Shown: positions 47,789-52,004 of the stretch, piece after piece | How positions within the stretch are numbered: position 1 is the first letter of the stretch | How the letters are laid out: each line of letters starts with the position of its first letter | Assembly: GCA_022837635.1 (NCBI GenBank) | Contig: JALHFY010000001.1 | Location: 317,693-381,692, forward strand | Direction of reading: 5' to 3' | Source: Candidatus Shapirobacteria bacterium | GTDB lineage: Bacteria; Patescibacteriota; Microgenomatia; UBA12405 | DNA length: 64,000 nucleotides | Position numbers and translations under genes: made by a program | The notes under the pieces: generated by a model | Database searches by the model: none | What the model was told of the DNA's origin: nothing | What the model saw: only the letters and a program-made list of their open reading frames with translations

Positions 47789-48273
47789 TGGGTGAGAGCG
47801 TTAGCAGAAATTGAGAGACGATTCTTAAAGTTGTCGTCATTAATAGAAACCGAAATCAAAGATGAAAATTGTTTAAGAAAATCTTGGTGTTGTTGATAAT
47901 TGCTCAGAAGACGACCAGTAGTATCATGATACTTTTTGTCAGCATGAATTTTTTTTAAAAAAGGATAACTAATATCTAGACTGATTAAAAAAACTTGATA
48001 CTGTGATTGTTGAATATTGGCCTCGATATTTTGCCATTGACGATCGACACTGGCGTCAAAAATAAAGGCTTGGCCTGATTTAAGTAAATCTAAACAACGG
48101 AGCCGAGCACGGCGGCGAAATTCTTCTTCATCAAGGAAGCTTAAATCTTCAATAACCTCAGTTCTAATAACATCATTGGAAAGAATGGGTAGATTGAATT
48201 GATGACTTAGATAATGAGCAATGGGTGATTTGGAAGAGCCGATGGGACCGGCAAAGGTGACTAAGTATTTCAT
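47767..48273 (-). CDS. P-loop NTPase, putative small nucleotide/nucleoside kinase
   Basis: Walker A GPIGSSKS near N-terminus; 168 aa. Confidence 0.5.
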   Translation of the reverse strand: MKYLVTFAGPIGSSKSPIAHYLSHQFNLPILSNDVIRTEVIEDLSFLDEEEFRRRARLRCLDLLKSGQAFIFDASVDRQWQNIEANIQQSQYQVFLISLDISYPFLKKIHADKKYHDTTGRLLSNYQQHQDFLKQFSSLISVSINDDNFKNRLSISANALTQWLKQQR

Positions 48274-48767
48274 TTCTTTTTATTTCGACGAGCAAACTTG
48301 GCGCCAACACGAGCATGGTGAGTCCGAGAATTATAGACCGATTGACGTTGATGTTTGAAGCTAGTCGGTTTTTTAAGAGTTTTTTTGGAAAAATCTTTTG
48401 ATTTGACTTTTTTTCTTTCAAAACGTTTTTCTTCACGTTCACGTCTCTCTGGATGACGATCGAGAGCCTCTTGATGGCGAGCTTGACCCTCAGGAGTGAG
48501 AAAGGGATCAGGTTGAGCATAGTCAACAATAATAGACAAATCCCCTAATTTATAACCATGTAGGGCAGTTTTAGCAGCTACCGCCTCATCTAAATTTTCA
48601 AATTCAACAAAGGCTAAGCCACGACTTTTGCCCCAGCGATTATGCATAATTTTGACAAAAACTACCTTACCAAAGGGAATAAAAAGACTAAGTAACTCCC
48701 CTTCCGTATAACGATAAGGCAAGGAGCCGACAAAAAGACGTTTACTGGGTGAAAAACTTTTTTCCAT
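48270..48767 (-). CDS. RRM-domain RNA-binding protein with basic C-terminal tail
   Basis: RNP2 LFVGSL and RNP1 RGLAFVEF motifs; Arg/Lys-rich C-terminus. Confidence 0.75.
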   Translation of the reverse strand: MEKSFSPSKRLFVGSLPYRYTEGELLSLFIPFGKVVFVKIMHNRWGKSRGLAFVEFENLDEAVAAKTALHGYKLGDLSIIVDYAQPDPFLTPEGQARHQEALDRHPERREREEKRFERKKVKSKDFSKKTLKKPTSFKHQRQSVYNSRTHHARVGAKFARRNKKK

Positions 48768-48792: not shown

Positions 48793-49437
48793 ATGTTTGA
48801 ATATGAAAGACTGGTTTTAGGAGAATTAGAGACCAATTGCTACCTATTATGGGAGAGTAAAAGTCGGGAGGCGGTAGTGATAGACGCCGCTGACAGTGCG
48901 GAAACAATTTCTGAAGAAATCGAAAAAAGACAATTGAAACTAAAATATGTGATTTCAACTCATGGCCATTTTGACCACAATTTAGCGGCATTGGATTTGA
49001 AATTAATTTATCAAGTGCCTTTTTGTGCCAGTCAAAAAGATTTCTTTTTATTAGAAAGACAACAAGAAAGTGCCAATCATTTTTTGGGAGCAAAAACTCA
49101 AGTACCGAATTTTAAGAAAATTGATATTGATTTAGACAAAACAGAGAGTTTAAGTTTGGGTAAACAAAAAATAAAAATTATCAAAACACCTGGACATACT
49201 CCAGGAGGAGTATCAATTTTGGCGGATAAATTTTTATTTGACGGGGATTTGATTTTCGCCGGAGGGATGAGAGGTGATACCAGACATCAATACAGTTCAA
49301 ATCGGTTGATTTTTAGAAGCATTTGTAAGGTTTTGGATCTCCCTGATGATATAGAAATATTGCCGGGACATGGGGAAAAAACGACTGTGGCTGAAGCCAG
49401 AGAGCTGTTTAATTGTCAGTATTGCGAATGGAATTAA
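48793..49437 (+). CDS. MBL-fold metallo-hydrolase (glyoxalase II-like)
   Basis: STHGHFDHN (HxHxDH) and downstream His/Asp ligands. Confidence 0.8.
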   Translation: MFEYERLVLGELETNCYLLWESKSREAVVIDAADSAETISEEIEKRQLKLKYVISTHGHFDHNLAALDLKLIYQVPFCASQKDFFLLERQQESANHFLGAKTQVPNFKKIDIDLDKTESLSLGKQKIKIIKTPGHTPGGVSILADKFLFDGDLIFAGGMRGDTRHQYSSNRLIFRSICKVLDLPDDIEILPGHGEKTTVAEARELFNCQYCEWN

Positions 49438-49579
49438 TGGTCTCTTCAAAGCTTTGGTGATTATCCTGCTGAAGAGAAGCCAGGAGCTCAATTACTGAAT
49501 CTTCAAAATATTTTTTAATCGCTTGGGTCTGATCGGGGGTGAGTTTAAGTTCAATAGCTAGTTCGTCGATAGTTTTCAT
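49409..49579 (-). CDS. 56-aa helical hypothetical protein immediately downstream of the radical SAM gene
   Basis: Hand-translated minus-strand ORF ATG 49579 to TAA 49409: MKTIDELAIELKLTPDQTQAIKKYFEDSVIELLASLQQDNHQSFEETINSIRNTDN; below the 60-aa cutoff of the ORF track; 21 nt after the rSAM stop. Confidence 0.35.
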   Translation of the reverse strand: MKTIDELAIELKLTPDQTQAIKKYFEDSVIELLASLQQDNHQSFEETINSIRNTDN

Positions 49580-49600
49580 ATATAGAATTATACACTGTTA

Positions 49601-50452
49601 TTAATATCCTTCTTTTAAACCTGTATCATCAAAAAATAGACTTCGGCCTCTAGTGTGGTATTTTTCTGTATATCTCAGATAAACAAAAATTGGAATACCA
49701 TTTTGAGGGATATAAGCATAATTATCACAGGTACACCTGTCACCATCAACCATATGGCGAGTCAAGAAAAAATCACTATTATCACGATCAAGTGGACCTA
49801 AATCACGATAATCTATAAAATTTTGTCTCGTATATTGATTAACTTGCATCATAGAAATAAAACCAACTTCAGATATGTGTGAATCACTGACTGATTCTAA
49901 AAACTTAGTGACTTTAGAAGAGTTGTCTATATAGTTTTTCATGAGCACACAATTTATTCTTAAATCAGCATTTAATTCGTTTTTGACAAATGGTAAATCG
50001 TCAATTGATAAAGTTTTGGTTCCAAAAACTTGATTGTTTTTCATATCAAGATAATGGTGCCGACTTAACTGAATCGATTCGATAATGTATTTGTTTAATA
50101 AGTCAATATTATCTTTTAAGAAAGAACCATTAGTGTTGATAGTTATTCTTCGATTGTATTCGGAAAGAAGATCTAAAAGTCCTTCAAACTTCTGTGGGTT
50201 GATTAGAGGTTCACCTCCGCTAACAGAAAAACGACTAATGTGTGGATATGTCTGCCTTAAAATTGTCCTAAGTTTAGGTAGATCTAAATTACTAGTTTCA
50301 TTCGGGTTTAATTCAGCATTCGAACAAAATTGACAACGGCCATTGCATTGACCAGTAATATTTATATAGAAAGGAAATTCTTTATCGGAAGGACTACATT
50401 CGTATGGTGATAAATTAAAGGTCTGACCAGAAACTTCAACGATGTAACTCAT
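49601..50452 (-). CDS. Compact radical SAM enzyme (CX3CX2C, SGGEP), candidate peptide maturase
   Basis: GQCNGRCQFCSN cluster-binding motif, SVSGGEPLI SAM motif, C-terminal CTCDNY Cys pair; 283 aa; 13 nt downstream of the repeat peptide gene. Confidence 0.7.
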   Translation of the reverse strand: MSYIVEVSGQTFNLSPYECSPSDKEFPFYINITGQCNGRCQFCSNAELNPNETSNLDLPKLRTILRQTYPHISRFSVSGGEPLINPQKFEGLLDLLSEYNRRITINTNGSFLKDNIDLLNKYIIESIQLSRHHYLDMKNNQVFGTKTLSIDDLPFVKNELNADLRINCVLMKNYIDNSSKVTKFLESVSDSHISEVGFISMMQVNQYTRQNFIDYRDLGPLDRDNSDFFLTRHMVDGDRCTCDNYAYIPQNGIPIFVYLRYTEKYHTRGRSLFFDDTGLKEGY

Positions 50453-50465
50453 GTTACAAAATTAT

Positions 50466-50705
50466 TTAACATGATTTGTGACTACTACTGCTACCACCGC
50501 GACCACAGGGATGCCCACCGCCAGAACTACTGCTACCACCGCGACCACAGGGATGCCCACCGCCAGAACTACTGCTACCACCGCAATTATGATCCTCCAT
50601 ATAACCAAAAATGTCATCTAGACGGGCTCTAGCAAGGTCACCATACTCACTATCAACTCTGGAATTAACTAAATTGGCAGCAATTTCTTTATTATTTGTA
50701 CTCAT
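50466..50705 (-). CDS. Small Cys/Gly/Ser/His-rich repeat peptide, candidate RiPP precursor
   Basis: MSTNNKEIAANLVNSRVDSEYGDLARARLDDIFGYMEDHNCGG-(SSSSGGGHPCGRGG)x2-SSSSHKSC; ATG at 50705 preferred over GTG at 50720. Confidence 0.6.
   Translation of the reverse strand: MSTNNKEIAANLVNSRVDSEYGDLARARLDDIFGYMEDHNCGGSSSSGGGHPCGRGGSSSSGGGHPCGRGGSSSSHKSC
50487..50570. repeat. Perfect 42-bp tandem direct repeat (2 full units plus partial flanks 50481-50584) encoding the 14-aa peptide module
   Basis: ACTGCTACCACCGCGACCACAGGGATGCCCACCGCCAGAACT x2, 100% identical. Confidence 0.9.
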
Positions 50706-50798
50706 GGCTGATAATAACACACTTGCTTAGATAATAAAAACGAGTAGAGAAGTATTGAGAGATAAGGTAAAATATAGTTTGGCAAGCTGCAATATTTT

Positions 50799-50869
50799 TA
50801 CCCCGTCGTCTAATGGTAGGACATTACGCTCTGAACGTAAGAATCGTGGTTCGAATCCATGCGGGGTAA
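50799..50869 (+). tRNA. tRNA-Gln (anticodon CTG), no encoded CCA
   Basis: Acceptor TACCCCG/CGGGGTA, anticodon stem TTACG/CGTAA with loop CTCTGAA, T-arm CGTGG-TTCGAAT-CCATG. Confidence 0.8.
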
Positions 50870-50930
50870 CAAAACAAATAACATAAAGTAAATAAATCTT
50901 GGAATATTTTTCTTTGCTATGATGGTATAG

Positions 50931-52004
50931 ATGAATCAAAATAGAAAAAGTAAAATTATAGCCACAGTGGGGCCGGCGACGGAAAGTGAAAAAGTCTTGA
51001 ATGAAATTATTCAAAACGGAGTGAATGTTTGTCGATTGAACACTAAATATAGTGATAAAAGTTGGCATCAAAAAGCAATTAGAAATATTAGAAAAGTAAG
51101 TGGTGGTAAGGTGCCGATACTTTTGGATATTCCCAGACTTGATTTTGAAATTTTTGAAAATGTGGATATGGTGGCCGTATCGTATATTAAAAATGCGTCA
51201 GAGATTGAGAAAGTAAAAGAGAGATTAAAAAGACAAGGGCGGAAATTACCGATTATTGCCAAGATTGAAAATGTCTCAGCGCTAAAGAATTTGGAAGAAA
51301 TTATTCAAGTGACAGATGGAGTCATGGTGGCTAGAGGCGACTTGGGAAGAAATATTCCGATTGAAGAATTGGCTACACTACAGGGAAGAATTATTGATAC
51401 CACTAGATTAGCCAACAAACCGGTAATTGTAGCCACGGAGATGTTGTTATCAATGACTAAAAATCCCCTACCGACTCGAGCGGAGGCTTCTGATGTGGCT
51501 CACGCCTTGTTTGATGGAGCCGATGCGGTGATGTTGTCAGAAGAAACTTCAATCGGAGAACATCCGGCGGAAGCAGTTAAAGTGATGAGTAAAATTTTAG
51601 GTTTTAGTGAGAAAAACGGTGACATCAAAGAGATTGAACATGACAACGACACTTTAGGAGAAACTATTATTAAATCGGCTAAAGACTTATCAGAGTTTGC
51701 AGATGCAGTCGTGGTCTTTACAAAATCAGGGGGATCAGCGCAGAAATTAAGTAATTATCGTCTCCAGAAAAATATAATTGCCATTACTGATCAGGAAGAG
51801 GTGGCAAAATTATTGAATTTATCTTATGGAGTAACCCCCTACTTTAAAAAGTTTACTGACAAACATTTTGATAAAAATCATGACATTTTTGAAGAACTTA
51901 AAGAAGCGAAAATGATTAAAAACAAAAGTAAACTACTATTGATACATGGCAATAACTGGCTGGAAAGCGGTTCAGTGAATGCTCTTAGTTTTGTGGAAGT
52001 TTAG
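50931..52004 (+). CDS. pyk: Pyruvate kinase (short form)
   Basis: KIIATVGPAT, MVARGDLG, SEETSIGEHP motifs; 357 aa. Confidence 0.8.
   Translation: MNQNRKSKIIATVGPATESEKVLNEIIQNGVNVCRLNTKYSDKSWHQKAIRNIRKVSGGKVPILLDIPRLDFEIFENVDMVAVSYIKNASEIEKVKERLKRQGRKLPIIAKIENVSALKNLEEIIQVTDGVMVARGDLGRNIPIEELATLQGRIIDTTRLANKPVIVATEMLLSMTKNPLPTRAEASDVAHALFDGADAVMLSEETSIGEHPAEAVKVMSKILGFSEKNGDIKEIEHDNDTLGETIIKSAKDLSEFADAVVVFTKSGGSAQKLSNYRLQKNIIAITDQEEVAKLLNLSYGVTPYFKKFTDKHFDKNHDIFEELKEAKMIKNKSKLLLIHGNNWLESGSVNALSFVEV

Follow-up and report, generated by a model that had tools for sequence, protein, structure and literature searches.

A small cysteine-rich peptide and a compact radical S-adenosylmethionine (SAM) enzyme are encoded beside tRNA-Gln in a 64,000-nucleotide stretch (hereafter the window) of contig JALHFY010000001.1 from a Candidatus Shapirobacteria bacterium, a genome-reduced member of the Microgenomates group of the candidate phyla radiation (CPR)/Patescibacteria, and the two genes have been gained or lost as one unit. 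We favor, at about even chances, the explanation that they form a self-contained, horizontally acquired two-gene module in which the small protein would be the dedicated substrate of the compact enzyme. Conserved adjacency, a joint insertion or deletion (indel), a Cys tail that is under selection and the disorder of that tail make a cognate enzyme-substrate pair the most economical account. The original prediction, made from the letters of the window, had described three co-directional minus-strand genes as a cassette for a ribosomally made, post-translationally modified peptide (RiPP). ORF calls recover all three, with gaps of 13 nt between the peptide and the enzyme and of 21 nt between the enzyme and a helical 56-aa ORF.

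The joint gain or loss is seen by comparison with four contigs of sister strains (L171-L174), which are about 90% identical to the window at the nucleotide level. Their gene order is PK … tRNA-Gln, 56-aa ORF, metallo-beta-lactamase (MBL)-fold gene, RNA-recognition-motif (RRM) gene and Dus, with neither the radical SAM gene nor the peptide gene. In BLASTN alignments, window positions 50874-50798 and the sequence from 49603 downward map 18 nt apart in these contigs. Because the tRNA-Gln, which is 100% identical between the window and the sister strains, lies there 18 nt from the backbone upstream of the 56-aa ORF, the intervening segment of the window is a precise indel. The insertion site next to a tRNA that had been proposed for the locus thus holds, as an accessory indel adjoining tRNA-Gln. 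The cassette is likely to be a horizontal acquisition in the window lineage rather than a loss from the sister strains, because the GC content of the radical SAM gene is low, its nearest relatives, at 57-61% identity, include metagenome-assembled genomes (MAGs) labeled Clostridiales, Clostridium and Bacilli, and the pair is absent from all four sister contigs. The GC content is 32.0% in the radical SAM gene against 37.5 +/- 2.5% across 55 window genes (z = -2.2, second lowest), 46% in the peptide gene, owing to its Gly codons, and 34.7% in the whole insert, so that the earlier impression of a locus richer in AT than its flanks is right for the enzyme gene and wrong for the peptide gene.

The same contigs decide the status of the 56-aa ORF, which had been taken for the third gene of the cassette. 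It is retained in the sister strains that lack the peptide and the enzyme, where its copies differ from that of the window in 15-16 codons synonymously and in 4 non-synonymously. It is a genuine backbone gene under purifying selection and, being present in strains without the pair, is not a member of the cassette; the three-gene cassette is rejected. By exact-sequence look-up, its protein cluster comprises 10 variants on many contigs and the radical SAM cluster a single member, and no comparable small ORF was found downstream of the radical SAM homologues at other loci. In L171 the MBL gene is cut to a 73-aa remnant and the 56-aa ORF is intact. An island of another kind adjoins tRNA-Gln at its 3′ side in the sister contigs (about 2893-3963 in L171-L174, at about 50849-50930 of the window). 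There, 26-40 nt of the tRNA 3′ end recur about 1 kb away in a copy that brackets a 302-aa gene; beyond the copy lies either a 295-aa gene or a Peptidase_S26 gene. The recurrence has the appearance of an att-type duplication left by an integrative element. Since this island is absent from the window, both sides of tRNA-Gln are variable hotspots.

The peptide of 79 aa can be written as MSTNNKEIAANLVNSRVDSEYGDLARARLDDIFGYMEDH-NCGG-(SSSSGGGHPCGRGG)x2-SSSSHKSC (all C-terminal tails quoted here run to the stop codon). In agreement with the leader-core layout seen in the original prediction, a 39-aa N-terminal leader precedes a Gly/Ser core with four Cys, which lie in DHNCGG, in each of two GGGHPCGRGG modules and in the C-terminal HKSC. 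Gene calls in public assemblies include the identical 79-aa sequence; there is also an allele of 65 aa, which differs from it by exactly one 14-aa module. The number of modules, one or two, varies among strains of the host organism, always in frame, and a 42-bp offset in the BLAST alignment with contig L001 matches one repeat unit. Short-read contigs (L002-L004, from Logan) stop 61 nt upstream of the radical SAM start, at about 50513; they end inside the 42-bp tandem repeat, and the peptide gene is therefore systematically truncated or lost in them. It is the comparative data, and not the length of the ORF, that make the peptide gene more than a chance ORF: homologous precursors were found upstream of homologous radical SAM genes, so that lack of conservation, which would have spoken against the original prediction, is not what the relatives show. 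No NCBIfam family matches the peptide at E <= 1, and no HxsA model is matched by the close-clade and distant precursors scanned; the comparison with SCIFF- and HXS-type models that had been proposed for the peptide thus gave no match.

The enzyme has the hallmarks of the radical SAM superfamily, namely a CX3CX2C motif (GQCNGRCQFCSN; C36, C40 and C43), a GGE motif for SAM binding (SGGEP) and a partial TIM-barrel fold, together with RCTC and an SRHHY motif. The CX3CX2C and SGGEP motifs, the CTC pair and the lack of a full SPASM domain were all noted in the original prediction, and its statement that neither protein belongs to a recognizable family also stands, as neither enzyme nor peptide matches a described family. 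Pfam gives Radical_SAM and Fer4_12 only, with no SPASM domain at E <= 1 and no match to PqqD or another RiPP recognition element (RRE); nor does any conserved third gene supply an RRE. The enzyme lies below every curated family cut-off in Pfam, NCBIfam, PADLOC and PHROGs. The NCBIfam scores, in bits against the respective cut-offs, are 58.8 against 284 for MoaA, 49 against 131 for NrdG2, 41.4 against 180 for viperin (NF038283), 39.5 against 267.9 for HxsC (TIGR03977), 35 against 300 for YydG (TIGR04078), 30 against 232 for PFLA, 28.8 against 170 for N_Twi_rSAM and 25 against 260 for the best QueE model, and the mycofact_rSAM and PqqE models reach 22-33 bits against 265 and 381. The enzyme is also far below the cut-offs of the PapB, StsB, ScmE/F and WgkB models, and the SCIFF maturase model TIGR03974 is absent among the listed matches, all of which are well below cut-off. 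Membership in MoaA, viperin, HxsC, YydG, SCIFF or PapB was rejected on this ground. PADLOC returns pVip at 52.6 bits, through the radical SAM core only, and PHROGs generic radical SAM similarity only. The best sequence match in the PDB is the peptide epimerase YydG/EpeE (E = 3e-12), over residues 25-121, which comprise the SAM-cluster region only.

Searching a protein database yielded 47 homologues, 269-304 aa long and with 44-61% identity. Their alignment (A1) shows four further invariant Cys, C19, C168, C240 and C242, and SRHxY…D..N as an invariant motif; all the A1 invariants are present in the window enzyme, and the four extra Cys recur in distant clades too. With one Cys where a barrel strand ends and a CxC pair within a C-terminal beta-hairpin, their placement is reminiscent of the twitch-type auxiliary cluster of BtrN and marks a candidate for one. 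The radical SAM protein defines a compact family of about 275-300 aa outside the curated models. A profile search over 1.84 billion cluster representatives puts 158 clusters in the family at E <= 1e-30, a number that grows to 967 when the threshold is relaxed to E <= 1e-10.

What accompanies these enzymes elsewhere? A1 was scanned against representative genomes, metagenomes and viral contigs, and the gene upstream of each match was read; loci at >= 250 bits are called the close clade, and 147 loci at >= 125 bits make up the whole family. The upstream gene usually encodes a small protein whose N-domain is helical and whose Ser/Gly tail is disordered and carries Cys, and the stop codon of the partner and the start codon of the enzyme often overlap or nearly abut. 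In the close clade, 13 of 16 non-redundant loci have an upstream protein of 65-160 aa with Cys in a Gly/Ser-rich tail. The co-occurrence of peptide and enzyme that had been put forward for checking by comparative genomics is thus that of a conserved, co-inherited pair, and the adjacency is kept across MAGs of several bacterial lineages and phages. The upstream ORFs of the two nearest homologues, whose taxonomy is unplaced, end in …SHSSCGSSDEDTNSGGHSACGGSSSGGVRHGGHSSC (…GGHSACGG…GGHSSC) and …SYSCGNCGSGGDSDGGRGHC (…GGRGHC). In precursors from MAGs of gut Bacilli, Clostridium and Erysipelotrichaceae, the N-domain is helical and conserved (FLQKIFERSxxP…) and is followed by one to five copies of G-H-P-[S/A]-C-G between variable Gly/Ser/Tyr spacers; they end in a follower of about 25-30 aa that overlaps the radical SAM start by 17 nt and mostly lacks a terminal Cys. 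The HPCG module is accordingly no peculiarity of this genome; it is the CPR version of this G-H-P-[S/A]-C-G module. Over 30 non-redundant close-clade precursors, a His precedes 90 of 130 tail Cys by one to three positions, the commonest context being [GA]HP[SA]C[GC] in one to five copies with variable spacers. A profile search with the precursors found 18 unnamed protein clusters without Pfam domains. AlphaFold2 models the N-domain of a gut-clade precursor confidently as helical, with no fold match in the PDB, and the Cys core as disordered, at a model confidence (pLDDT) of about 35, which fits a substrate region accessible to the enzyme.

In the whole family, a terminal Cys is found in 46 of 96 non-redundant upstream proteins as against 17 of 655 other ORFs in the loci (2.6%; Fisher p = 2e-32). 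When only small upstream proteins are counted (<= 200 aa, n = 55), the terminal residue is Cys in 38, a further 13 contain Cys among their last 40 residues, and the other 4 lack it there. Tails such as …SSSSSSSSYTSSGCGGGGYSSSHC, …YGDDGCGGGSRGYSRSSC, …SYTNRC and …HVLTPGC are typical. Within seven positions of the terminal Cys there is usually one aromatic and one basic residue, a pattern to which the window tail …GRGGSSSSHKSC conforms. The broader hallmark is thus a Ser/Gly tail with Cys, very often terminal, and the tail is under selection, in that a short motif is kept and spacers and copy number drift. We propose to define the family by (i) a radical SAM protein of 275-310 aa with an SRHHY-type motif and the four extra Cys and (ii) a small protein encoded immediately upstream on the same strand, with a Ser/Gly tail containing Cys, typically terminal. 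The window pair belongs to it, having all the A1 invariants in the enzyme and four tail Cys, one of them terminal, in a peptide encoded 13 nt upstream. We found no description of the enzyme family or of its partner proteins in the open-access full-text literature.

Three architectures can be told apart among 118 non-redundant loci. Group I, the clade of the window, is a stand-alone pair, with NAD genes or a second radical SAM gene near none of 16 loci. Neighbors of close-clade loci are heterogeneous, being mostly housekeeping or mobile genes, and no third gene, protease, exporter or defense family recurs around them. Group II consists of distant enzymes (27-35% identity) with small Cys-tail partners; a NadR-like gene is nearby at 28 of 40 loci and PnuC at 16 of 40, and NrtR, CinA and ADP-ribosylglycohydrolase are also among the neighbors. 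In Lachnospiraceae (L028, L030 and L038), the order is PnuC, NadR, a 95-aa protein ending in …PGC and the radical SAM enzyme, and in Tenericutes/Bacilli MAGs (L022-L024) it is NadR, a Ser-rich protein ending in …RC, the radical SAM enzyme, ADP-ribosylglycohydrolase, CinA and NrtR. Many group II loci are viral contigs of jumbo-phage size, 42-483 kb (L107-L160 and L175-L189; aquatic metagenome, IMG/VR), whose peptides end in …YSRSSC or …YSSSHC and whose pairs are beside a NadR-like nicotinamide mononucleotide (NMN) adenylyltransferase, PnuC, Macro, SIR2 and CYTH. Group III, mainly from Bacteroidales (L025-L055 and L126-L170), has a HemN-like radical SAM gene in 50 of 51 loci and an upstream protein that is large and in many cases includes an ADP-ribosylglycohydrolase domain; in P0090 (737 aa), a HemN-like and a compact radical SAM protein are naturally fused. 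No report of a radical SAM enzyme in NadR/PnuC operons or phage NAD clusters was found in the open-access full-text literature.

Two further loci have neighbors of other kinds. In a Bacilli MAG (L005-L007 and L018; L005 3768-8107), the homologue P0037 lies inside a WXG100/LXG-like (type VII secretion) cluster and directly follows a 369-aa protein with about ten TTCSGSxI repeats, which may be a secreted protein substrate. In L255 (3158-4135), the closest homologue of the cassette on a long contig has, just upstream, a gene with a KwaB domain, a component of the Kiwa defense system, and, just downstream, a PIF1 helicase gene, a weak hint of a defense-island context.

How might the pair work? If the small protein is the substrate, the enzyme would reductively cleave SAM at the cluster held by C36, C40 and C43, and the 5'-deoxyadenosyl radical would take a hydrogen atom from every His-x(0-2)-Cys module as well as from the C-terminal …HKSC. 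The electron would pass to a second, twitch-like Fe-S cluster bound by the four extra invariant Cys. The outcome would be an oxidative two-electron crosslink of short range, in the form of a thioether-type ring from the Cys sulfur to a carbon of a neighboring His, Lys or Arg, with a change of -2 Da per module. Thioether-ring chemistry specifically is a guess by analogy, as in NxxcB, and we would put its chance at one in four or five. Since the pair is accompanied by neither protease nor exporter, the product would remain with the cell as a small protein modified at several sites; the pair is RiPP-like in logic, possibly with a modified small protein, rather than an excised peptide, as its product, and a RiPP in the strict sense would lose its leader and be released or exported as a modified core. 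The substrate role is further favored by the best sequence match in the PDB, YydG/EpeE, by the presence of four more invariant Cys and by the lack of a conserved third gene in the close clade. Several points weigh against it. The paralogous clades sit in NAD/ADP-ribose neighborhoods, which could point to a nucleotide substrate; Pfam finds no RRE domain in the enzyme; about one quarter of the family loci, those of the Bacteroidales type, have a large upstream protein without Cys in the last 40 residues; and the thioether chemistry is borrowed from other systems.

Known systems offer partial parallels. SCIFF/ranthipeptide systems in their minimal form consist of a peptide and one radical SAM maturase, as in Tte1186/CteB, PapB and NxxcB; PapA has repeated CX3D motifs, and NxxcB makes a short-range Cys-Asn thioether. 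The window pair resembles them in having just two genes, with that for a small, Cys-rich precursor directly before the radical SAM gene, repeated short Cys motifs and no dedicated exporter. However, its enzyme is about 150 aa shorter than their SPASM enzymes and has neither a match to SPASM/twitch hidden Markov models (HMMs) nor an RRE, its motif is G-H-P-x-C-G or a terminal Cys in place of the SCIFF or CX3D motif, and its peptide matches neither the SCIFF model (TIGR03973) nor the GG-Bacteroidales model. As in mycofactocin (MftA/MftC) and PqqA/PqqE, the chemistry would take place at the extreme C-terminus of a small peptide, and sister clades are tied to redox-cofactor metabolism; but MftC and PqqE are SPASM enzymes with an RRE partner, and the terminal residue is Tyr there and Cys here. 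YydG/EpeE is a compact radical SAM enzyme too; it modifies a peptide and has one auxiliary cluster, although its substrate YydF has no Cys/His motif. MoaA, viperin and BlsE are nucleotide-modifying radical SAM enzymes; the C-terminal cluster motif of MoaA, CX2CX13C, is not evident in the window enzyme, which has the CxC pair and two distant Cys instead, and no molybdopterin or kinase genes adjoin the window pair. The nearest conceptual analogue is the HXS anti-phage system, in which the radical SAM enzymes HxsB and HxsC, with HxsD, put a +8 Da modification on SHRSS of a five-repeat effector (PMC13128918). Both have a compact non-SPASM radical SAM enzyme (HxsC there) and a protein with short His-containing repeats, which is the target in HXS and would be so here, and SHRSS is similar to …SHKSC. 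The window enzyme nevertheless falls far short of the HxsC cut-off, HxsB, HxsD, a signal peptide and a peptidoglycan-binding domain are lacking, and the conserved residue is Cys rather than Ser.

The strongest rival to the peptide-substrate reading is that the enzyme acts on a nucleotide-type molecule derived from NAD, NMN or ADP-ribose, with the Cys-tail protein serving as a carrier or as a flexible arm that sacrificially donates sulfur or thiol, so that more Cys modules would allow more turnovers. The MoaA/viperin/BlsE-like fold of the enzyme and the NAD contexts of groups II and III speak for it. We nevertheless consider it unlikely: NAD genes are absent near the 16 window-clade loci, and neither homologues of the NAD genes of the distant clades nor a HemN-like radical SAM gene were found in the 64-kb window; a sulfur donor would not require a strictly conserved G-H-P-x-C-G context; and the matches to nucleotide-enzyme families are far below cut-off and concern the generic radical SAM core only. 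It is also conceivable, with still lower probability, that the peptide is the substrate and that the key chemistry occurs at its free C-terminal Cys, for example oxidative decarboxylation to an enethiol in the manner of MftC on the MftA Tyr, yielding a peptide-derived cofactor or a reactive warhead with the HPCG modules in a secondary role. The excess of terminal Cys in the partners, including the window …HKSC and its two nearest relatives, would be explained in this way; the Lachnospiraceae partners, whose sole tail Cys is the terminal one (…TPGC), and the link of the sister clades to redox-cofactor (NAD) operons also speak for it. The gut-Bacilli members of the window clade argue otherwise, in that they carry the follower after the last Cys, mostly with no terminal Cys, and their internal modules are the best-conserved element.

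A role as an anti-phage or conflict effector system like HXS is compatible with a peptide substrate, as it concerns what the modified protein does, and we regard it as improbable. The module is strain-variable cargo in a hotspot beside a tRNA; a homologous pair lies by a KwaB-domain gene and another homologue in a WXG100/LXG-like cluster; HxsC is among the better-scoring peptide-related HMMs (39-47 bits); and the modified HxsA motif SHRSS resembles the window C-terminal SHKSC (PMC13128918). Yet PADLOC shows nothing beyond generic pVip similarity, the neighbors in the close clade are mostly housekeeping genes with no recurring defense family, the other HXS components named above are missing from the cassette, and a likeness over five residues may have arisen by chance in a tail so rich in Ser. 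The alternative entertained in the original prediction was an activase of the NrdG/PflA type, with the peptide as a metal-binding protein; QueE, and a peptide that is unrelated or a spurious ORF, were weighed with it, and the small size of the enzyme without SPASM and the possibility that the His/Cys motifs bind metal are in line with it. All three model scores are far below cut-off, however, no glycyl-radical enzyme or queuosine gene was found nearby, and the adjacency of peptide and enzyme is conserved across lineages and phages, with the pair gained or lost together; the activase and QueE readings were rejected on these grounds and appear very improbable.

The coordinates of the locus are collected in Table 1. 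Rfam finds two tRNAs only in the window, and a promoter and terminator scan of 49200-51000 gave counts not above those of shuffled sequence. At 48270-48767 on the minus strand, the window encodes an RRM_1-domain RNA-binding protein with a Lys/Arg-rich tail, which is kept in the sister strains. The window pyruvate kinase has its closest named relatives, at about 58% identity, in Candidatus Shapirobacteria MAGs.

Table 1. Features of the peptide-radical SAM locus, in window coordinates.
Feature	Position	Strand	Description	Basis
Peptide gene	50466-50705	minus	79 aa (ATG start) or 84 aa (GTG start at 50720)	ORF and translation
Compact radical SAM gene	49601-50452	minus	283 aa	ORF, motifs, alignment
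56-aa ORF	49409-49579	minus	backbone gene, outside the cassette	kept in sister strains
Inserted segment	49604-50797		about 1.19 kb; peptide and radical SAM genes exactly	BLASTN against L171-L174, tRNA positions, junctions
Tandem repeat	50484-50584		42-bp unit, 2.4 copies, 100% identical; encodes the 14-aa SSSSGGGHPCGRGG module	TRF
tRNA-Gln(CTG)	50799-50870	plus	flank, 5' side toward the cassette, outside the module	ARAGORN, Rfam
MBL-fold gene	48793-49437		convergent; 29-nt overlap with the 3' end of the 56-aa ORF	Pfam Lactamase_B

The pairing of a precursor with a radical SAM enzyme is already known in kind, and neither the enzyme nor the partner family has a curated model; the signatures that set them apart are the G-H-P-x-C-G module and the terminal Cys. 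Enzyme and partner together are a new, uncurated variant of the theme of a small precursor with a radical SAM enzyme, and the finding is more general than the original prediction held, the CPR genome carrying a minimal mobile form. The PnuC/NadR/NrtR operons of the sister clades and the NAD genes of jumbo phages suggest a link between radical chemistry on peptides or proteins and NAD biology. A bolder proposal, which we advance as speculation with the balance against it, is that the compact family carries out an undescribed Cys-directed radical reaction (a His-Cys or Arg/Lys-Cys ring, or one at the free C-terminal Cys) that would make the tail-bearing proteins cofactor- or effector-like, wired in the sister clades to NAD+/ADP-ribose salvage and to the NAD toolkits of jumbo phages, with the CPR cassette as the stripped-down mobile form. 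If the two genes do encode an enzyme and its substrate, they would represent a new class of maturases, very compact and lacking both SPASM and RRE, that would offer enzymologists an attractive minimal scaffold, and a genome-reduced CPR bacterium would be seen to acquire and keep a peptide-modification module as strain-specific cargo.

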